Positions 1-43,507 of a stretch of 64,000 nt of DNA are shown here, one piece after another; within the stretch, counting starts at the first letter, position 1; the number at the start of each line of letters is the position of its first letter. This DNA comes from a virus. Its lineage: Duplodnaviria > Caudoviricetes. The position numbers and the translations under genes are program-made. Where the stretch lies: the IMG/VR virus record IMGVR_UViG_3300020508_000005, positions 1 through 64,000 of that record; one strand, 5' to 3'. The notes under the pieces are model-generated. The model saw only the letters and a list, made by a program, of their open reading frames with translations. It made no database searches and was not told the origin of the DNA.

Positions 1-86
1 CATTTACTGCCGTGCCATTAACTACAGTTCCGCCAGTTGCAATAACATTATCTGTAACGACATTTACTGCCGTGCCATTAACTACA
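1..86. repeat. 60-bp-period direct repeat inside the fibre gene
   Basis: catttactgccgtgccattaactaca at 1 and 61; atgttatatgttgcaaaggatgttgctgtcccattta also recurs at 1731 and 1911. Confidence 0.9.
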
Positions 87-2677
87 ATTCCACCAGTTGT
101 GGCGACGTTAAAGTTTATATTGGCCCTTGCTAAGCCGCTAGCAAGCGAACCGCCTGCCATGGCGTCTCTTACGGTCAAGCCTGCATTTGCAGACCCAGTA
201 ACAAAAACACCGCCACTTGGCACAATATTATACGTAGCAAATAAATTCGCTTGTCCATTTGCAATTGCTCCACCAGACATGGATTCTACATCAACAAAAT
301 CCTCTATTGATGTGCCACTAAGTTTCGCTCCGTTCGTTGCTAAGAAGTTGTAACTTGCACTAAATGGAGCCGAGCCATTAATAACAGAAGTGCTGATGAT
401 TGATGGCTCGATTAAAACCGCATGCATTTTCCAACTATTTGCAATGCTTTGTAAATTATTGTTTTCCCCTAGAGTAAAAATGCCTGTTTCGGGATAGTTT
501 TGATACCATGCACTGCTCTGTATCGTGGCTCGAAGCGGGTCATTTATGGAAATTACAGATTCGTCAGAAGTAATTATAAAATCATATAAATGCCTTGCAA
601 ATCCTATGGCCCAAGAATTAGGCACAGAACTTGTCAAAGAGATTTTCATGTCATTTCCAGTATCACTTCCTTCATAAATTGTTGGACTGAAACTTGGGCT
701 TATTTCAGGCAAATTTGTGCCAGAAATTCTTACAGCATATGCCACTAAGTCTATCCCACTTGCAGAAGGATCTGAAAACGTAATTGTTATAGGGCTCGAT
801 GTCGGATATTTAACGGTCGCACACATGGTGTATAGCCCTTCAACATTAATACCTGCAAAAGATGTCCAATAAAGGTTATGGCCAGTTATGCTTTCTAAAA
901 CAAGATTAGAATCTAAAGGATCAGTGTAGACTACTCCTACAACAATAACTTCCCCCTCCACTGGAGTCCATGTTGGTAAAGTAACAACAATGTTATAATC
1001 TGACGAATTTACTGTGGTTTTAATGTATTGTTCTAAAACAATGTTATCGGTTATTACAGATTTGGCTATTATATTGCAAGTTAGATTTGGCCTTGCAATG
1101 CCACTTGCGATTGTTCCTCCAGTTGAAATAACATTTCTTACTACATTAGGAGAGGTCGTTCCGCTTAAAGAAATTCCCCTTGTTGCTGAAGTATTGTATG
1201 TAACAAATAATGACGATGTGCCATTAAGTAAAATGCCACCAGACATACTTTCAAAATCAACAAAATTAGAAGATAGCGTGCCGCTCACAACGCTACCGCC
1301 TGAAATTCCTATAATATATGTCAATAGTGAACTAGCTTCGCCATTACATAAAGAACCTCCAGTTGATGTGATTTGATAATTAGTAGAAGAAAAAACAGAA
1401 CCACTTATTTTTAATCCACCTGATGTGATTGGCAAATAAGATAAATTGTTTAAACTAGACCCACTAGCAAGCGAACCGCCATTTGAAATCACATTATAAA
1501 ATGTTGATATTGTCGCAGTGCCGCTAGAAGAAATGCCTCCCAACATAGATTCTGTCGTGCTATACCCAGAAGCTAAGGACCCAGAAAGTGTTACACCTCC
1601 ACTTGAAATAAAGTCGTAAACAATAGATGATGTTGCATTGCCATTTGCAATTGTTCCACCAGACATGATTTCAATATCATTGAACACAAAGACAGAAGTG
1701 CCACCTACAACACTGCCACCTGTTGTTGTGATGTTATATGTTGCAAAGGATGTTGCTGTCCCATTTACGGAAGACCCTCCGACAGCCACAATGTTAAAAA
1801 TTGACAAAGGAGCATTTGATCCATTAAGTAAAATGCCGCCTGACATGGTGTCAACATTGTTAAATGCTGCACTTGAGGTTCCGCTTGCGACACTTCCGCC
1901 AGTTGCTGTGATGTTATATGTTGCAAAGGATGTTGCTGTCCCATTTAAAGAAACGCCACCTGTCATTAGTTCTGTGTTTATGTAATTGAACAGAATTGAG
2001 CCTGAAAGTATGGCTCCACCTTGTGAAGGTAAATTGTACGACAGTGAGCCTTGTGCTGTTCCGCCTAAAAATGCACCTTGAGAACTTTGTAAGTTAAAAG
2101 TGCTTTGAGCAAGTGCAGTGCCACTAGAAAGTGTGCCCCCAGTAAAAATAATGCTGCTTAATTTGAAATAAATCGCACTGCCACTGACGATAGAGCCGCC
2201 TACAGCACTTATATTATAGGTGAACTCTACTGTTGATGTCCCATTTAGATTTGCTCCACTTGAAGCAATAACATCTTTAACAACATAGTAATCGGAGCTT
2301 CCACCAGCACTAATTCCACCAGAAGCAATAAAATCTCCTGCTTCGTCAAAAAGAGATGCTGATCCACCTACAACGCAACCACCAGATGCATTTTCCAAAA
2401 TTGATTCTGTGTTTGTGGCTGTGCCAGCAAGTAAGATTCCACTAGAAGAAATCCAACTCAGAACAATTTGTGTAGTGGCTGTGCCATTAACCTGTACGCC
2501 ACCCGTTGAAACATAAACAGTGCTTATATCGGCACTACCAGATGCTACGACGCCGCCCTGTATGACATATCCAGACTCTACGGCTGCAATACCAGAAGCT
2601 ACAAGACCTCCCACCAATGGTGATAGGTTTATGTTAAAATTGGTATCAAATTGACGCAGCCTGATATCAAACGACAT
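1..2677 (-). CDS. Long Gly/Ser/Thr/Ala-rich repeat virion protein (fibre/filament scaffold); continues beyond the window start
   Basis: Not in the ORF track (no stop in window). ATG at 2677 after GAGG; MSFDIRLRQFDTNFNINL... then a 20-aa period (YNxxxxGGxxxxG[TS]Axxxxx), interrupted by a non-repetitive domain at ~420-1060; same frame at both ends. Confidence 0.85.
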   Translation of the reverse strand, partial: MSFDIRLRQFDTNFNINLSPLVGGLVASGIAAVESGYVIQGGVVASGSADISTVYVSTGGVQVNGTATTQIVLSWISSSGILLAGTATNTESILENASGGCVVGGSASLFDEAGDFIASGGISAGGSSDYYVVKDVIASSGANLNGTSTVEFTYNISAVGGSIVSGSAIYFKLSSIIFTGGTLSSGTALAQSTFNLQSSQGAFLGGTAQGSLSYNLPSQGGAILSGSILFNYINTELMTGGVSLNGTATSFATYNITATGGSVASGTSSAAFNNVDTMSGGILLNGSNAPLSIFNIVAVGGSSVNGTATSFATYNITTTGGSVVGGTSVFVFNDIEIMSGGTIANGNATSSIVYDFISSGGVTLSGSLASGYSTTESMLGGISSSGTATISTFYNVISNGGSLASGSSLNNLSYLPITSGGLKISGSVFSSTNYQITSTGGSLCNGEASSLLTYIIGISGGSVVSGTLSSNFVDFESMSGGILLNGTSSLFVTYNTSATRGISLSGTTSPNVVRNVISTGGTIASGIARPNLTCNIIAKSVITDNIVLEQYIKTTVNSSDYNIVVTLPTWTPVEGEVIVVGVVYTDPLDSNLVLESITGHNLYWTSFAGINVEGLYTMCATVKYPTSSPITITFSDPSASGIDLVAYAVRISGTNLPEISPSFSPTIYEGSDTGNDMKISLTSSVPNSWAIGFARHLYDFIITSDESVISINDPLRATIQSSAWYQNYPETGIFTLGENNNLQSIANSWKMHAVLIEPSIISTSVINGSAPFSASYNFLATNGAKLSGTSIEDFVDVESMSGGAIANGQANLFATYNIVPSGGVFVTGSANAGLTVRDAMAGGSLASGLARANINFNVATTGGIVVNGTAVNVVTDNVIATGGTVVNGTAVN

Positions 2678-20039: not shown

Positions 20040-20540
20040 ATGAAGCATTTTAATGAATCTAGTTTAGACGATCTTTTCAATCATGCCGTTATTGCGTTTC
20101 CGAACACAAAAATGAGACAGCACGCAGTGCAGCCTATTGTAATTGAAACTTTGCGTTATACCCCATTTATTGGCATGAAGACTTTGTTTATTAAAGGACA
20201 TGCAAGAAACGAAGACAGACATTACGACACAATCATCTTGTTCAAGAATGTCGATTATACCAATGAGCAAGTAAAAATAAAAGCTAGCGACAATAAATTA
20301 TACCAATTTGGTAAATTGTCACTAGAATCTACCGATGTATTGGTGCGATGCTCTTGTCCAGATTTCAAATGGCGTTTCAATTATTATGATCATTTAGATA
20401 GATCACTGTACGGCACAAAAAGATCCAAATACGAAGGATCGACGGGAATTGCTGCCAATCCAAAACAGTTGCCCGGAATGTGCAAACATTTAATGGCTAC
20501 AACTAAACTCTTACATGAATCAGGAATATTTTTGGACTAA
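20040..20540 (+). CDS. SWIM zinc-finger protein
   Basis: CSCPDF...MCKH. Confidence 0.75.
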   Translation: MKHFNESSLDDLFNHAVIAFPNTKMRQHAVQPIVIETLRYTPFIGMKTLFIKGHARNEDRHYDTIILFKNVDYTNEQVKIKASDNKLYQFGKLSLESTDVLVRCSCPDFKWRFNYYDHLDRSLYGTKRSKYEGSTGIAANPKQLPGMCKHLMATTKLLHESGIFLD

Positions 20541-21265
20541 TTTCCAAATAAGCTTTTCGCTTTCATGTTCGCTGAATAATACCCATCTATATTTTCTCCA
20601 CAATCGGCCCACCAGCCTTTTAATTGATGGACTTTGAGTTGTCCTTTTTTTAAATAGTGATTGTTAACATCGGTAATTTCAAGTTCACCTCTAGCAGATG
20701 GCTCTAAATCATAAATGAAATCCCACAAAGTCTTGTCGTACAAATAAAGACCAGTGGCAATTGTGTTACCAGTGGGGTTTTTAGGCTTTTCAATTATTTG
20801 TAAAACTTTACCATTTTCGTCTTTTTCGATTACTCCATAAAATTCTGGATGCTCTACATCATAGCCAAAAATTACAGCACCTTCAGGTTTACTTGAAAAT
20901 TCTTTTACTGGAGCTTCAAAATTCTCTGAAAAAATATTGTCAGCCAAAATCACACACATACTATCATCGCCAACAAATTCTTCAGCTAAACTCAGAGCGT
21001 CAGCAATTCCCTTCGGTTCAGATTGGTACGTGTAATGCAAATGACGCAATCCAAAATCTTCGCCATTGCCTAAAATTCTCAAAAACTCTCCTGCTGCATT
21101 TCCTCCACAGACCATAAGAATGTCTTTAATTCCTGCATTTACCAAAGATTGAATTGGATAATAAACCATTGGCTTATTATAAATTGGCAACAGACATTTG
21201 TTAGTAACTTTAGTTAAGGGATATAATCGAGTACCTAAACCACCAGCCAATACAATACCTTTCAT
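20537..21265 (-). CDS. rmlA: Glucose-1-phosphate thymidylyltransferase-like sugar nucleotidyltransferase
   Basis: GIVLAGGLGTRLYPLT, EKP, SARGELEITD. Confidence 0.9.
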   Translation of the reverse strand: MKGIVLAGGLGTRLYPLTKVTNKCLLPIYNKPMVYYPIQSLVNAGIKDILMVCGGNAAGEFLRILGNGEDFGLRHLHYTYQSEPKGIADALSLAEEFVGDDSMCVILADNIFSENFEAPVKEFSSKPEGAVIFGYDVEHPEFYGVIEKDENGKVLQIIEKPKNPTGNTIATGLYLYDKTLWDFIYDLEPSARGELEITDVNNHYLKKGQLKVHQLKGWWADCGENIDGYYSANMKAKSLFGN

Positions 21266-21267
21266 AC

Positions 21268-21621
21268 TTACTCCTTATTTTCGCCTGTGCTATTTGTTAT
21301 GTGAAGATTGTACACTACATTCACAATTGCCGTGCCTTTTTCTTCGCGGTAGATCAAATTGTGAATAATCCGGCTTATCGTAGCAAAAGTTACATCGTAC
21401 TTTTTGGACAATTCCTTTATGGAAGCTCCTTCCGAATGAAGTTTTCTAATTTCTGTTGCCCTTTTGCCGTCCAATTTGCCACAACCGTAATTTGGCTTTG
21501 GTTGATACAAATTGTATTTTTTTAACCAATTGATTATTGTTTTTTCAGTAACGCCAAATTTTTTTGCAGCTTCTTTTCTACTTTCCCTGTAAGGAAGTAA
21601 CTCATCTTTGCTTGGAATCAT
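21268..21621 (-). CDS. Double helix-turn-helix DNA-binding protein (copy 1)
   Basis: Start MIPSK after GAGG; EAAKKFGVTEKTIINW and ELSKKYDVTFATISRI. Confidence 0.8.
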   Translation of the reverse strand: MIPSKDELLPYRESRKEAAKKFGVTEKTIINWLKKYNLYQPKPNYGCGKLDGKRATEIRKLHSEGASIKELSKKYDVTFATISRIIHNLIYREEKGTAIVNVVYNLHITNSTGENKE

Positions 21622-21738
21622 AAAAACCTCGAAAATCCTTCCAAGTAAAATTAGTACAAAGAAAAAAAATTTTTTTGTACTGAGGTGCATACCTAATTGC
21701 AAATGCCTTTTAAAAGGAAGTAAAGAAGGAGAATAATT

Positions 21739-22152
21739 ATGCCACTAGTAGTACCTGACGTAGGCGAACTAAGACTTTTGGACACCATGTTGAAGTTGGC
21801 TTTGTCCACCAACGAAAACCACATTTTGAAGTTATACTCAAACAACTATACCCCGATCTCTACCGCTGCTGTTGGATCGTTTACAGAAGCTAACTTCACT
21901 GGATATGCTGCTCGTACTTTGACTCGTTCTACTTGGAACAGTGCTGTAACTGTTTCGGGTAAGGGCGAAACATCTTACGGATCAGTTCAATCTTGGACTT
22001 GCGGAACAACCGGACAAACCATTTTTGGTTATTATGTACAAGGCTCAGCAGGAACATTGCTTTGGGCTGAATTGTTTACGACAAGCCGTGTTTTGGCTAG
22101 CGGTGACGTTCTTAACATCACTCCGAAGTTTACCTTGTCCTCAGAAACCTAA
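21739..22152 (+). CDS. Small virion fibre/filament subunit (copy 1)
   Basis: Strong SD (AGGAG); LKLY.N, TGY, GYYV, LLWAE.F; paralogue of 41818..42219. Confidence 0.7.
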   Translation: MPLVVPDVGELRLLDTMLKLALSTNENHILKLYSNNYTPISTAAVGSFTEANFTGYAARTLTRSTWNSAVTVSGKGETSYGSVQSWTCGTTGQTIFGYYVQGSAGTLLWAELFTTSRVLASGDVLNITPKFTLSSET

Positions 22153-22233: not shown

Positions 22234-23061
22234 ATGAAACAAAAGCTGTTAATCCTTATTTTGCTTCTACTTACATTTTTTGTATCCGTTGTTTTTGTAC
22301 GAGAAACAAAAAACAAGAAGCCTCAAGTTTCTGTAGGAAAAATTCAACTAGAAACTCCAAAAGCACCAAGTAATGAAAACTTCTTGATTGATTTGCTGAA
22401 AGAAGTCAACGAGTTAAATAAAAACATTTTCTCTTTTTCTTGTGAAGAAGCTGAAGTAAAGATTTGGGAAAATGGTCACAGATTTAGGTTGCAAGCCAAA
22501 GTTTTTTATCAAAAACCTTTAAGTTTTCATATGAAAGTTAATTCCATTTTTGGAGAAGAGCTTGTTTTAGGCTCTAATGATAAAAGCTTTTGGTACTGGT
22601 CAAGACGTGATCGCCGCCCTGCGTTGTATTGGGCATCTTACGAAGATTTCAGCAAAACTCGTTTGAAAACTCCATTTAATCCCATGTTCATGAAATCAAC
22701 TTTAGGTTTGGAAGACATTTCTCTTTCAGATGCAAAAATTTCAGAAACTCAAAAGAAAATATTAGTAACATACCCACGAGTTGATTCTATGGGCAGAGCG
22801 ATTTTATACTCTGTTTTGGTTGATAAGCAAAAGAAAATCATTTCTGGTTTTTTGATTGCAAATACTTCTGGTCAAAACCTAGTTGAATGTATGATTGAAA
22901 GAGCAAATGATAATTCTACGACAAAAATAAATTATATCTGGCACGAAGAAAATCGAGTGATGACTTTGGAATTTAAAAATGCAAAATACAATCAGGATAT
23001 ATCTAGAAGCGTATTTTTAATGCCAAATATTGACCCAAAAATCAATATGGCTGATGAATAA
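22234..23061 (+). CDS. Membrane-anchored protein, possible LolA-like fold
   Basis: N-terminal TM helix; LGSND..FWYW; beta-rich. Confidence 0.5.
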   Translation: MKQKLLILILLLLTFFVSVVFVRETKNKKPQVSVGKIQLETPKAPSNENFLIDLLKEVNELNKNIFSFSCEEAEVKIWENGHRFRLQAKVFYQKPLSFHMKVNSIFGEELVLGSNDKSFWYWSRRDRRPALYWASYEDFSKTRLKTPFNPMFMKSTLGLEDISLSDAKISETQKKILVTYPRVDSMGRAILYSVLVDKQKKIISGFLIANTSGQNLVECMIERANDNSTTKINYIWHEENRVMTLEFKNAKYNQDISRSVFLMPNIDPKINMADE

Positions 23062-23089
23062 AAAAAGGCTGGAAAATCCAGCCTTATGA

Positions 23090-23329
23090 CTATTTGTTAA
23101 GTCGCTTTTTAATAGCTTCTCTTCGCAGTTTTTCTGCTTTTAATCTTTGTTCATCCATTCTACGATGTTCTCCAACGCTTACAGATTGTTGCATTCCCAT
23201 AGCTCTCAACTCTGCTGGTGTCGGCCCTGCCGCTGAACCGCCTTGAATAGATCGAGGCCCCACTGACGGCCTGAAGGTTATAGATCCCCTTCTAGCTGGT
23301 GAACTTTTTTTTCCACATCCACATCCCAT
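23090..23329 (-). CDS. Small basic protein with MGCGCG N-terminus
   Basis: GGAGG SD; 79 aa. Confidence 0.7.
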   Translation of the reverse strand: MGCGCGKKSSPARRGSITFRPSVGPRSIQGGSAAGPTPAELRAMGMQQSVSVGEHRRMDEQRLKAEKLRREAIKKRLNK

Positions 23330-23421
23330 AATAGTTCCTCCAAAAAACCTATTGTATATATCCTTCTAAATTTGATTAAGACATACTCTTTTGGTTATGT
23401 ACTTGGAAAAAGGAACATTCT

Positions 23422-25023
23422 ATGTCGAACGAAAATGAACAATTATTAGAAAACGCAAATCAAATCATGGAAGAAGCTGTGGAAAAAGCAGGTGAACTGC
23501 TTATGAGCAAGCCACAGATTGCAGAAATAATTCTTAAACAATGCCTTAAATGCGATCCAGAGCACAATGCTGCCTTACAACTTTTGGGTTTGTGTAAACA
23601 CAGAATGGGTGAAAATGCTGAAGCAATTGAAATTATTCAAACGGTTCTAGATCTTGATCCGTCGAACGCAGATAACTGGAACAATTTAGGACTTGCTTAT
23701 GGTGGCCTTGGAAATGAAGAAAAGGCTATAGAGTGTATCAAAAAAGCTCTTGAAATTAATCCTAATCATTTTCTTTATCAAAATAATTTGGGGCTTCATT
23801 ATCGAGCAAGTGGCGATTATGAAAATGCAATTGCTTCTTTGCGTCAAGCTCTGAAATCTGAAGAACGACCACAACTTTGGGTAAATCTTGGTGGTATGTA
23901 CGGTGAGCTTTGCAATTTAGAAGAAGCTGAAAAATGCTTTGAAAGTGCTATCAAACTAGACCCAGAGTACGCTGCTGCGTATGTTGACCTTGCATTTGTT
24001 TATCATTTAAGAGGCGATTGGAAAAAAGGCTTTGCTGCCAATGAATGGCGATTCTTCTATTATCCCCAAATGAAATATTATCATAGTTCTTTCGACATGC
24101 AAAAACTTTGGGATGGCAAAGCCGATCTTAATGGTAAGCGTGTTTTGATTTATGGAGAGCAAGGACTTGGAGATATTATTCAATTTGTGCGATTCACAAA
24201 ATTTTTAAAAGAAAAAGGTGCTCATGTAATTGTTCATTGTCCTACAAACTTGGACGCAATAATTAGAAGAGTGGAAGGCGTTGACGAAACAACAAATAAA
24301 GATATTTACAATAAAACAGATGAAGTTTTTCCTGAATACGATTATCAGTTTTCAATGATGAGTTTCCCGTATCTTTTGAATTTAGATACCATCAGTGGAA
24401 AGCCTTATGTTAAACCTGCTACAACGGCTTTCAAAGATTATATGCAAAAAGAATATGGAAAAACTTTAAACGTTGGTATTGTTTGGGCAGGAAATCCTGC
24501 TCATCCTCACGATCAAAGACGCTCAATTCCATTAGAGAACTTTAGACTATTGCACGATACTCCGGGCGTGAAGTTGTTTAGTTTACAAATTGAAAGCTCA
24601 AAAAGACAATATGGAGTAACTTATCGTAACCTTGAAAGTGTCGCAAAACCAGATGATACTTGTATCAATAAATTTATACCTCAGCACGGTATAGTAGATT
24701 ACAGCGAAAACTGTGAAGATATGAAAATCGTAGATCTTACTAAAATGATACAATCATTTGATGACACAGCAACTATTTTAGCAGGTTTAGATCTCGTTGT
24801 TTGTTGCGATACCGCCACCGCACATTTAGCAGGTGCTATGGGCGTTCCTGTTTGGGTTGCTATCCCTTATAATCCTGATTGGCGTTGGGAACTTAAGGGC
24901 GATACCACATATTGGTACGACAGTATGAAGTTGTATCGCCAGCCTGAAAGAGATGATTGGAAATCTGTATTTGAAAGGATGCAAAAAGATCTAAATGAAA
25001 CTGTACTACAGAATCAGCGATAA
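23422..25023 (+). CDS. TPR-repeat glycosyltransferase (GT9-like C-terminus)
   Basis: Several TPRs; EQGLGDIIQFVRF, GIVWAGNP, DTATAHLAGAMG. Confidence 0.9.
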   Translation: MSNENEQLLENANQIMEEAVEKAGELLMSKPQIAEIILKQCLKCDPEHNAALQLLGLCKHRMGENAEAIEIIQTVLDLDPSNADNWNNLGLAYGGLGNEEKAIECIKKALEINPNHFLYQNNLGLHYRASGDYENAIASLRQALKSEERPQLWVNLGGMYGELCNLEEAEKCFESAIKLDPEYAAAYVDLAFVYHLRGDWKKGFAANEWRFFYYPQMKYYHSSFDMQKLWDGKADLNGKRVLIYGEQGLGDIIQFVRFTKFLKEKGAHVIVHCPTNLDAIIRRVEGVDETTNKDIYNKTDEVFPEYDYQFSMMSFPYLLNLDTISGKPYVKPATTAFKDYMQKEYGKTLNVGIVWAGNPAHPHDQRRSIPLENFRLLHDTPGVKLFSLQIESSKRQYGVTYRNLESVAKPDDTCINKFIPQHGIVDYSENCEDMKIVDLTKMIQSFDDTATILAGLDLVVCCDTATAHLAGAMGVPVWVAIPYNPDWRWELKGDTTYWYDSMKLYRQPERDDWKSVFERMQKDLNETVLQNQR

Positions 25024-40464: not shown

Positions 40465-40732
40465 CTTCATGCGTTACATGGCCAATCCCAAGGCTTTTAC
40501 TATCAAAAAATGGCTTTATGAATTGCTTCAATTAAATTATGCTGCTCATGATCAAATTGTTGAGAGAGTTTCTTCTACTTTAGTCACCGACAGAGATCTT
40601 GAAGATTTCAGTAAATTGGTTGGTCAAATTTTTGAAGCTGGATATAAAAAAGCTGTGGATGATTATCGCAAACAGTTTGAAGATATGGGATTGAAAGTTC
40701 AAATTATCACATCCGCAAATGAGACTAACTAA
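40442..40732 (+). CDS. Hypothetical protein
   Basis: Likely start MPENNQ after AGGA. Confidence 0.65.
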   Translation: MPENNQNNFMRYMANPKAFTIKKWLYELLQLNYAAHDQIVERVSSTLVTDRDLEDFSKLVGQIFEAGYKKAVDDYRKQFEDMGLKVQIITSANETN

Positions 40733-41387
40733 AATCAGGATTTAAATCTGATATTGTTCCTTTGCAAAGATGTCCGCCACTTTTTGATTCTGTTTCAGAA
40801 ATTCGCCACCATCTCTCTCCGCCCTGTTGATCTTTCTTTAAGATTATTGAATCTTTAGTAAGTTCACGCATACACCAAAATTGGATTTCAAGATCAGATT
40901 GTGCAATTATGACTGCGTCGAATATAAATTTCGTTCCATATTTGTTAGTTGTATAGCTTGTTCCATACAATTCATCTTTCCACAATTTCTGGCCAATTAC
41001 AGGAGCACAATAAAATTCAGTACCTCTATCTTTAAGAATTTTAGCAGTTTTTTCATCTACGTGAATTGTGATGCTCTCTTGATCTTCTTTAATTGGCGGA
41101 GGCATTTCAGTAATTGGATCAGGAGCAGAAACCTCTTCTATAAAGTCTCTAGGAGATATAACTTGACTTGGCTCAGGACCTTGATATAAATCCAACTCTT
41201 CAGATATGTTTTTAACACTAGTAGCAAATTCTTTTATTGGATTTCTACTATCGGCTATCACTTCTTCTTTTGATCCAAAGTGATTTACAAGTTTTACGGC
41301 TTCTTTATTCCAATCGCTCATATCTTTGACCAAAGGATTTGGACCACGTAGTTTGTACACCTTCCCATCTTTGTCTTTAATTGCCAT
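40725..41387 (-). CDS. Hypothetical, possible head-closure paralogue
   Basis: MAIKDKDGKVY resembles MAIKNPNGSTY of 44383. Confidence 0.5.
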   Translation of the reverse strand: MAIKDKDGKVYKLRGPNPLVKDMSDWNKEAVKLVNHFGSKEEVIADSRNPIKEFATSVKNISEELDLYQGPEPSQVISPRDFIEEVSAPDPITEMPPPIKEDQESITIHVDEKTAKILKDRGTEFYCAPVIGQKLWKDELYGTSYTTNKYGTKFIFDAVIIAQSDLEIQFWCMRELTKDSIILKKDQQGGERWWRISETESKSGGHLCKGTISDLNPDFS

Positions 41388-41748
41388 ATTTGTAACCAAC
41401 TTTTACTAAAGCATTCCCGCTTACTTTAAAATAATTAGTTTTTTTGTGCGATTGATTATTTACAATCTTAGATACCATCGACTGACTGATATTGTATTTT
41501 TCTGCAATCTCTTTTTGTTTATATTTTCCAGTTTGGTATAAATTTCTTATATCAGAAATTATTTGACTACTAAGATTTTTAGGTCCGTGATTCATTTTAG
41601 CCATGTCATAATCTTTAATGATTCGATCTAAAGTTCTTTCTGATATTTCAAAATAGTTGCAAATATCTTTTCTAGCACAATTTGCAAGTATTTCAATCAA
41701 TTCTTCTTTGGAAATATTCAATGATTTTATTTTAGATGGTTTTGGCAT
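41377..41748 (-). CDS. Double helix-turn-helix DNA-binding protein (copy 2)
   Basis: DICNYFEISERTLDRI and EIAEKYNISQSMVSKI. Confidence 0.8.
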   Translation of the reverse strand: MPKPSKIKSLNISKEELIEILANCARKDICNYFEISERTLDRIIKDYDMAKMNHGPKNLSSQIISDIRNLYQTGKYKQKEIAEKYNISQSMVSKIVNNQSHKKTNYFKVSGNALVKVGYKYGN

Positions 41749-41817
41749 TTGAATTTCCTTTAAATATTACTTCGCCAATATGTATATAATATAAACTCTT
41801 TATTGAAAGGAAAATTT

Positions 41818-42219
41818 ATGCCTATTGTATGTCCTGATGTTCATGGAGAACTTTTATTGCTTCAATATATTGTTGGAATGGTCAATGCGGATAATCCAGT
41901 TTTGCACTTGTATGCCAATGACATTGTTCCTTCTGACACCACAGTGAAGGCTGATTTAACTGAAATTGGCACTCAAACTGGCTATACTCCAATAACTTTA
42001 TTGTCAGCTAATTGGACCACTGTGCAATCAAGTGGCGTGACTTCGGCAGTTTATTCAGAGCAGACTTTTACTTTCACTACAGACACAACTGCGTATGGCT
42101 ATTATGTTACCAATCAATCGAATCAACTATTGTGGCTTGAAAGATTTACTGGTGCCCCATTTGAGATACCAGATGGCGGTGGAAGCATTAGTGTCACAGC
42201 AAGTCTTACCTTGAGCTAA
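41818..42219 (+). CDS. Small virion fibre/filament subunit (copy 2)
   Basis: MPIVCPDV..ELLLL, LHLYAN, TGY, YGYYV, LLWLERF, LTLS; paralogue of 21739. Confidence 0.7.
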   Translation: MPIVCPDVHGELLLLQYIVGMVNADNPVLHLYANDIVPSDTTVKADLTEIGTQTGYTPITLLSANWTTVQSSGVTSAVYSEQTFTFTTDTTAYGYYVTNQSNQLLWLERFTGAPFEIPDGGGSISVTASLTLS

Positions 42220-42265
42220 AAAGACCGTGATGTGACACGGCCTTTTTAGCATACTCATAGTAGTT

Positions 42266-43507
42266 TTACTTAGTTGAAGACATGACAAATTTAATGCCAT
42301 CTTCTAAATGTTTTTGAGCAAATTCTTGAAGATTAGATGGCTTTAAATTTTCGGCACATTCTTTGATTAAATTAATATTCATTAATTTTTGATGTTGTTC
42401 AACAAACCAAGCATTATCAATTGATAGTTCAATTCCAGCCATGACAGTGTTGGCAACTCCGTGAACATTTTGAAGACCTTTAATCTTGCTGTAAATGTAT
42501 TGTTTTTTGCATATTTCAAACAATTCATCGGGAAATCCATTTTCCTTTACTTTATTGAATAGCTTGACAAGTTCTTCTTCTGCTTTTTCGAGATGTTCAT
42601 TGCTTGTCAGCATTGATATAATTGCATGGTTGTTTTCATAGTGACTAAAGCCACTTATTGAAACGCCATAACATAATCCAAGATCATCACGAATATGTTC
42701 GTACAAGTACTTGTTTAATGCATACATGAAAAATGTAGGAACAAATTTTTGTTCAATATTTTCTTTGAGAGAAATCCATTTTTGAACATGGCCGAATGCA
42801 GCTTGTTCAAATCTGCTGGTTTCAAAAGCGTATCTCTTCTCTTCATTCAAAAGAGAATTTAGGCAAGTCCCTGTTTTTTGAACTTGTGGGATTTGTGGTA
42901 AAATTTTATTCACCGCATCCATCACATGTGTGAATTTTAAATTGCCAACAATAATCAAACCCATATTTTGTTGGCCGTACCATTTATTTCGGTATCGATG
43001 CAATTTTTCGGGGCTCATGTCACGAATAGACTGTTCTGTTCCAATGATGGGGTGTGTTTCTGTTGTGCCAAAACATTTTTTAGCTACAAAATTCCAGAAA
43101 AATTCGGTGGGATAATTATCATACATACGCCACTCTTCAATTATAACACTTTTTTCTTTTTCAAATTCTTGCTCAGGAAAGTTCGAATCGAAAACAGCTT
43201 CTTTCAAAAGCATTAAACCTTTTTCGAAGTCTTCATTAAGAGCATCAAAATGATATGTGGTGGCAAAATAGTTTGTGGATGCATTAAAAGATCCAACCAA
43301 AGCTTGATCACGAGAAATTTGGTGTTTATTTTTAAGTGGGGTCCCTTGAAAACAACAGTGCTCAAGAAAGTGAGCAACGCCCCAAGAATCTTGATCCTCT
43401 TGAGCAGAGCCGCAATTAGCGACTAAAATTACCTTGCAAATAGCAGAATCGGGCATTTTGACATGATAAACTGGAATGCCCGAATTACAAACTGAGTAGT
43501 TCAACAT
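42266..43507 (-). CDS. M16 (pitrilysin/insulinase) metallopeptidase
   Basis: GVAHFLEH, NAST, EKEKSVIIEE, IRDDLGLCYG. Confidence 0.92.
   Translation of the reverse strand: MLNYSVCNSGIPVYHVKMPDSAICKVILVANCGSAQEDQDSWGVAHFLEHCCFQGTPLKNKHQISRDQALVGSFNASTNYFATTYHFDALNEDFEKGLMLLKEAVFDSNFPEQEFEKEKSVIIEEWRMYDNYPTEFFWNFVAKKCFGTTETHPIIGTEQSIRDMSPEKLHRYRNKWYGQQNMGLIIVGNLKFTHVMDAVNKILPQIPQVQKTGTCLNSLLNEEKRYAFETSRFEQAAFGHVQKWISLKENIEQKFVPTFFMYALNKYLYEHIRDDLGLCYGVSISGFSHYENNHAIISMLTSNEHLEKAEEELVKLFNKVKENGFPDELFEICKKQYIYSKIKGLQNVHGVANTVMAGIELSIDNAWFVEQHQKLMNINLIKECAENLKPSNLQEFAQKHLEDGIKFVMSSTK

Follow-up and report, generated by a model that had tools for sequence, protein, structure and literature searches.

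Why would a small double-HTH protein be encoded twice in the same phage, each time divergently from a small putative structural protein, and why would it end in a tail that shares a motif with the repeats of a long protein from the same genome? The window analysed here, a stretch of 64,000 nucleotides from a 94-kb viral record (G000), is a fragment of a T4-like jumbo myovirus, in which genes for the sheath, the sheath stabiliser, the hub and the neck adaptor were found. The attribution to a jumbo phage is based on near-complete relatives of 459-527 kb. The CheckV-type completeness of the record is about 19%, hence the copy counts given here are lower bounds. The initial annotation had described a double-HTH regulator ending in a copy of a fibre repeat, opposite a small virion subunit. 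The features concerned are the following.

21268-21621, minus strand: hth1 (117 aa), which combines two HTH domains with a conserved, beta-prone C-terminal tail and lacks a nuclease domain
21622-21738: spacer 1, the divergent spacer of 117 nt between hth1 and sub1
21739-22152, plus strand: sub1, a predicted bead protein of 137 aa (whisker/Fiber-1, Gp80-like)
41377-41748, minus strand: hth2, the 123-aa paralogue of hth1, located between the 220/224-aa gene and sub2
41749-41817: spacer 2, the divergent spacer of 69 nt between hth2 and sub2
41818-42219, plus strand: sub2, the predicted bead paralogue of 133 aa, within a neck/tail module
2-2677, minus strand: the repeat-protein gene, with 20-aa repeats, partial because the record start cuts the gene, a candidate rope for the sub1 beads
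20537-21265, minus strand: a nucleotidyltransferase (RmlA-like) gene, which starts 2 nt past the hth1 stop
40725-41387, minus strand: a conserved gene of 220 aa, which starts a few nt from the hth2 stop

The same divergent arrangement indeed occurs twice at these positions, and the paralogy that had been proposed for both members was borne out: sub1 and sub2 are 36% identical (E 6e-17), and hth1 and hth2 are 28% identical (E 2e-11). The start codons at 21621, 21739, 41748 and 41818 match the N-termini of homologues, and the 94-kb record contains two copies only of the HTH gene and of the bead gene. The "double-HTH" description was also accurate, with two HTH domains recognised by Pfam in each of the two proteins and a structure model of hth1 composed of two three-helix bundles. 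All Pfam matches of hth1 and hth2 are to HTH families (HTH_28 and HTH_23 for hth1), and no nuclease domain was found by Pfam in either protein. In the hth1 model, no secondary structure is assigned to the tail beyond residue 90, where the pLDDT is about 61-67 through residue 110 and drops below 50 thereafter. Foldseek searches with this model returned only weak matches to bipartite-HTH structures (7s03, 1u78 and 4u7b, E 0.04 or worse). The Mor/C activator family (PF08765) scored 21.1 and 15.2 bits, and the identification of the HTH proteins as Mor/C late transcription activators was not supported, as both scores fall below the gathering cut-off of 24.9 bits.

The "small virion subunit" of the initial annotation is borne out by the bead fold of the sub1 model. 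At the sequence level, sub1 scores 21.4 bits against PF23140 (Gp80), under the 27-bit cut-off, and sub2 gave no match to this family. A match to PF23140 at E 0.01 or better was obtained for 22 of 33 sub1 homologues (best 3.8e-7), and 29 of 30 Atlas neighbours were in Gp80-bearing sets. The sub1 model (pLDDT 87.9) begins with a helix (H7-24) followed by strands, and displays the N-terminal helix, the small sheet and the incomplete beta-sandwich that characterize the bead fold. It aligns with the Bas63 whisker (9mt4_K; Z 9.7, rmsd 2.8 over 106/107 residues), the Sf14 neck/whisker protein (9c39_K; Z 9.3) and the GP4 Fiber-1 protein gp80 (8jou_a; Z 8.3). A comparison of the bead profile with the sequences of solved structures gave no match, and tblastn of sub1 against deposited phages returned a single match, to a hypothetical protein. 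On the basis of the modelled fold, sub1 and sub2 are predicted to be paralogous bead proteins of the Gp80/whisker family and components of a beads-on-a-rope fibre. In solved fibres of this family, bead dimers wrap the rope "like beads on a string", and a strand of the rope completes the incomplete beta-sandwich of the monomer (PMC12609058). The rope carries five dimers in GP4 and eleven in A1002, where the beads are of two kinds, encoded by paralogues that have diverged (PMC13730344).

Two bead paralogues per genome were found in G001, G002 and G005, and also on four viral contigs; judging from these sequences, two paralogues per genome appear to be the rule in the clade, with both conserved across it. 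The sub2 gene is surrounded by neck and tail genes, keeps its synteny with genes encoding proteins of 1169, 103 and 224 aa, and is followed by a terminator-like hairpin (42225-42240). A 413-aa M16-type peptidase-like gene (42266-43507) comes after sub2 in the window, L073 and L087, and is missing there in L084. In L087, a contig otherwise 99.6% identical to L084, tblastn recovered the sub2 homologue (L087:894-1308) in two parts, a sign of a possible frameshift, and the gene was called as one with that of the peptidase downstream. In the close relative L074 (4001-5200), which lacks the HTH gene, sub2 has the opposite orientation with respect to its flanks, so that the 220-aa gene follows it on the same strand. 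On the 3′ side of sub1 (22234-25023) are encoded a protein of 275 aa whose N-terminus includes a hydrophobic segment, one of 79 aa on the opposite strand and a TPR-containing protein of 533 aa, and the synteny of this gene set is kept in L002, L006, L007, L088 and L099-L103. Compared with L088:1974-2387, sub1 has a dS of 0.74 and a third-position identity of 0.64, most neighbouring genes being saturated or nearly so. Such a low synonymous divergence may be due to strong constraint on codons, or else the region of the bead gene may have undergone gene conversion recently.

The initial annotation had further proposed that the small subunit binds each repeat of the long protein encoded at 2-2677, which has a period of 20 aa. 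A homologue of this repeat protein is convergent with hth and adjoins the sub1 pair in L007, L100/L101 and L102/L103, and the same adjacency to hth/sub1 is probable in the P0142 contigs. In G001, the repeat gene is located at the far end of the contig whose start is hth/sub1, and in the window it lies 19 kb from hth1/sub1. By analogy with the solved fibres, docking of the small subunit on the repeats is plausible: it is reasonable because the repeat-protein gene adjoins hth/sub1 in relatives, and it is indirectly supported by the Gp80/whisker fold, as solved bead dimers wrap a rope strand. The repeat protein gave no match to the sequences of solved structures. No candidate rope was found for sub2 when a PSSM of the hth2-clade tails was scanned over the 94-kb record, where nothing scored above 7.9 bits. 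In L007 (1-2931), L100 (759-2066) and L102 (1-2073), the repeats of the rope-like protein are followed by a conserved C-terminal domain of about 70 aa that is rich in Cys; the corresponding end of the window's repeat gene lies beyond the record start.

Whether the HTH proteins end in a copy of this repeat was addressed with a PSSM built from the 11-residue core of the 20-aa repeats and scanned over 30,071 positions of the 94-kb record. The hth1 tail obtained about 19-19.9 bits and ranked 1/30,071, with a runner-up at 10.9 bits, and its core score was reached by none of 1e6 random 11-mers. Over the full 20-residue repeat, the hth1 tail scored 4 bits versus 17-44 bits for real repeats. The hth2 tail was outside the top 250 positions with the core PSSM, tails of the hth2 clade scored 4.5 bits at most, which is background level, and no hth2-tail-like motif was found in other proteins of the 94-kb record. 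The resemblance claimed for the tails is thereby retained for the 11-residue core of hth1 and lost for the 20-residue unit and for hth2. The G-x-A-x5-Y motif is present in both tails, as had been noticed, and four times in unrelated ORFs. No DNA-level similarity was found between the tail-coding DNA and the repeat gene, the longest chance matches being of 9 nt or less, which ruled out the tail as a DNA-level copy of the repeat. The search for hth1 homologues returned 27 proteins, full length at 50-77% identity. Among the 25 with which the tail was compared, V102 and Y104 never vary and A98 hardly does, but there is no conservation of the motif's G. Compared with the rope repeats of their own genomes, the tails of L007, L100, L102 and G001 scored 2.4, -3.1, 5.9 and -2.9 bits, respectively, versus 19.9 bits in the window. 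Because the window alone scores high among these five genomes, there is no co-variation between tail and rope.

The distribution of the HTH gene is patchy. It is located directly upstream of the bead gene, on the opposite strand, at 20 of 82 viral loci and is missing at the other 62. HTH-less copy-2 alleles with otherwise identical synteny occur in L003, L075, L081, L046 and L050, where a 224-aa gene is directly divergent from sub2. In the complete genome of G005 (527 kb), both bead genes are present and no HTH-plus-tail gene was found, and G001 carries the HTH gene at one of its bead genes only. Hence, this is an intergenic insertion between conserved genes that shows presence/absence polymorphism. 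In close relatives of sub1 (75-87% identity), the HTH gene is found at every locus examined, and in this subclade it behaves as a stable resident rather than a mobile gene. The divergent synteny, which was expected to be kept in homologues, is thus kept among close sub1 relatives but not across the viral loci as a whole.

The HTH tree contains two clades that match the class of the neighbouring bead (SH-aLRT 92), with the nuclease-bearing forms nested in the sub2 clade. This topology would fit two locus-specific lineages or, equally, an old co-duplication of the pair. A dN/dS of 0.10 was obtained for hth1 at a dS of 0.8 (L088 versus L090), and such values indicate that the nuclease-free HTH genes are under purifying selection and maintained by it. 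At synonymous sites, hth1 has diverged no more than most neighbours. A separate descent of hth, considered on the basis of high dS, was rejected because the other neighbours are equally saturated and sub1 is unusually conserved.

The upstream HTH ORF exists in several forms: a 72-aa protein with a single HTH and the tail, proteins of 110-140 aa with a double HTH and the tail, and fusions with other domains. In L058, LAGLIDADG_2 is joined to an HTH and the tail (E 4.6e-27), while in L060 the order is HTH, LAGLIDADG_2, HTH and tail (E 6.4e-22), with the nuclease domain in the inter-HTH linker (hth1 residues 38-43). At the hth2 site of L084, a phage 70-80% identical to the window, the 215-aa protein P0151 combines a T5orf172/MUG113 nuclease domain with two HTH units and the tail. 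The HTH-plus-tail protein of L019 matches AP2 weakly, at 24.2 bits versus a cut-off of 33.3 bits. P0224 also bears the tail, and its context ends at a contig edge. More broadly, matches to the HTH core were found in 36,127 proteins, frequently with 3-15 copies in tandem; among the best 60 of these 36,127 matches, GIY-YIG is present in 14 and HNH_3 in 8. Fusions of the HTH core with GIY-YIG and HNH_3 were again found in a search of longer proteins, and PHROG matches are located on the C-termini of HNH and homing endonucleases. In these searches, the HTH module is homologous to the DNA-binding module of known endonuclease families.

The spacers contain several candidate signals. In spacer 1, a block of 21 nt (21641-21661) that occurs only once in the window is identical in five genomes (the window, L088, L099, L100 and L102). 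Its conservation contrasts with the saturated synonymous sites of the flanking genes, and it may serve as the promoter or operator of hth1. The A/T palindrome that comes after this block (21653-21681) is only partly conserved. A sub1-proximal block (21687-21697) was rejected as an operator because it is present in HTH-less loci too and is not enriched in the window. In spacer 2, a late-promoter-like TATATAA box (41783-41789) is located upstream of sub2. Boxes of this type occur 25-35 nt before the start codons of sub2-class genes at many loci, with or without an HTH gene, and probably represent the late-promoter form of the clade. Because the promoter-like boxes near the bead genes do not depend on the presence of the HTH gene, bead expression is apparently independent of it. 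An inverted repeat in spacer 2 was rejected as an element, as it corresponds to two ribosome-binding sites. On the other side of the HTH genes, the RmlA-like gene is probably co-transcribed with hth1, and the hth1/RmlA-like arrangement is repeated in L088, L090 and L099. The upstream region of the 220-aa gene appears to have been displaced by the insertion of hth2. An insert that carries expression signals for its downstream neighbour has a known reason for being retained (PMC2988022).

Taken as a whole, the sequence evidence leads us to favour, with moderate confidence, the reading of hth1 and hth2 as nuclease-free members of two locus-specific lineages of the free-standing homing-endonuclease type, one per bead paralogue, because the same module carries LAGLIDADG, T5orf172 or AP2 at these loci. 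This reading leaves the 19-bit core match of the hth1 tail in this genome unexplained. The stable presence in the sub1 subclade also speaks against it, as does the dS, which gives no sign of separate descent, and a strand-prone, unstructured tail of moderate-to-low confidence is also as expected of a partner-binding peptide. Such a peptide is central to the circuit of the initial annotation, in which the HTH protein would regulate the divergent promoter, the tail would act as a decoy rope repeat, and free bead would bind it and feed back. A single strand could dock in the incomplete bead sandwich, which a rope strand completes (PMC12609058), and the first rank of the hth1 tail against the repeat-core PSSM, the conservation of a tail without assigned structure, the gene order rope, hth, bead in L007, L100 and L102/L103, and the constant HTH/bead pairing among close relatives all agree with this idea. 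However, the tails of L007, L100, L102 and G001 do not match the rope repeats of their own genomes (-3.1 to 5.9 bits), those of the hth2 clade are unlike repeats and have no similar motif elsewhere in the record, and even in hth1 the match fails over the 20-residue unit and the motif G is not conserved among homologues. In addition, the same tail is carried by nuclease-bearing, homing-endonuclease-like proteins at the same locus, and the complete genome of G005 keeps both beads without an HTH-plus-tail gene, and 62 of the 82 viral loci lack the HTH gene. A regulator with a decoy repeat is hence not supported, and we regard the circuit as very improbable. In a variant of it, the HTH tail would serve as a donor-strand chaperone for bead monomers. 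In general terms, docking of the tail in the bead groove in the manner of a rope strand, coupling the free-bead pool to DNA binding or chaperoning monomers, is given the same slight probability, because a strand-prone unstructured tail is found beside a protein with a strand-accepting groove. In the case of chaperoning, the HTH tail would provide donor-strand complementation until the beads pass to a rope with over 35 repeats.

Two further explanations dispense with the beads as binding partners of the tail. The HTH proteins could be an ordinary pair of phage transcription factors, derived from one old cassette duplication without any selfish history, the nuclease fusions being secondary captures of a convenient DNA-binding domain. 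The congruence of the HTH tree with the bead class, the purifying selection, the conserved 21-nt block of the spacer, the stable presence in the sub1 subclade and the weak Mor/late-activator matches would all be in line with this. Nevertheless, we find it unlikely, as most loci and a complete genome lack the HTH gene whereas the bead paralogues occur throughout the clade, LAGLIDADG, T5orf172 and AP2 domains are joined to the lineage at the same site, the promoter-like boxes of the bead genes persist without the HTH gene, and the Mor matches remain below the cut-off. Alternatively, hth1 and hth2 could be the decaying remains of homing endonuclease genes, now devoid of both nuclease and function, in keeping with the lack of a nuclease domain, the patchy distribution and the shorter 72-aa single-HTH forms, which would be expected for stepwise loss. 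Decay is considered improbable given the dN/dS of about 0.1, the full-length homologues at 50-77% identity, the conserved tail and the translational coupling to downstream genes.

According to the favoured reading of nuclease-free proteins of homing-endonuclease type, the two members of each pair would have separate roles. Dimers of sub1- and sub2-type beads would thread onto the rope strand to form beads-on-a-string fibres, and the HTH proteins, which most likely act as local DNA binders, would have their DNA targets within or close to the spacer or the 5′ end of the bead gene. In the nuclease-bearing relatives, this binding could aim cleavage at HTH-less genomes and thus lead to homing. The hth1 and hth2 proteins of the window would bind only, and may have been kept as local (auto)regulators and also since they would now carry expression signals of the downstream genes. 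The tail would then be a part of the DNA-binding module, involved in DNA contact or dimerisation, and not a copy of the fibre repeat.

With these results, a tempting assembly-sensing circuit is removed, as the evidence does not support it. On the basis of their predicted fold, two unannotated jumbo-phage proteins join the beads-on-a-rope family, the structures of which were solved recently, and the candidate rope greatly exceeds all solved ropes in length. Furthermore, one locus-specific DNA-binding lineage appears joined to different nuclease or AP2 domains or to none, the nuclease-free form being the commonest. The locus could hence serve as a natural test case for the shuffling of homing-endonuclease modules and for the possible domestication of their DNA-binding parts as local regulators.

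The predicted bead proteins resemble Bas63 gp5 and the Sf14 whisker, GP4 gp80, and A1002 gp40/gp41 in their size of about 135 aa and in the N-terminal helix followed by an incomplete beta-sandwich. As in A1002, two diverged bead paralogues are encoded in one phage, and similarly to Bas63, sub2 is located in the neck module of a myovirus. In relatives, though not in the window, where 19 kb separate the two, the bead gene has a repeat-rich candidate rope gene as its neighbour, in likeness to the solved bead fibres. Unlike in the solved cases, the bead paralogues of the window are 20 kb apart rather than adjacent, and at least 35-45 repeats of 20 aa make up the candidate rope, whereas the solved ropes have 2, 5 and 11 docking sites.

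The closest parallels to the HTH genes are found among the free-standing endonuclease genes of T4-like phages (seg and mob), which are intergenic and located between conserved genes (PMC2988022). Like seg and mob, the HTH genes are small, intergenic, present or absent among related phages and tightly packed with downstream genes, and they belong to a modular lineage of nuclease and DNA-binding parts, with an HTH core common to GIY-YIG and HNH enzymes. They differ from seg and mob in that the two HTH proteins of the window have no nuclease domain and are under purifying selection, in that one DNA-binding lineage is combined with LAGLIDADG, T5orf172 or AP2 at one locus, and in the conserved strand-like tail after the last HTH. 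The two three-helix HTH units with a linker are also reminiscent of Tc1/mariner transposases and paired domains, a likeness of architecture based on weak matches, but hth1 and hth2 lack the transposase core. For their candidate regulatory role, which would consist of operator binding with no cleavage, the nearest precedent is the autorepression of I-TevI, whose DNA-binding domain alone acts as a repressor (PMC2988022), with the difference that I-TevI keeps its nuclease and hth1 and hth2 are wholly without one.
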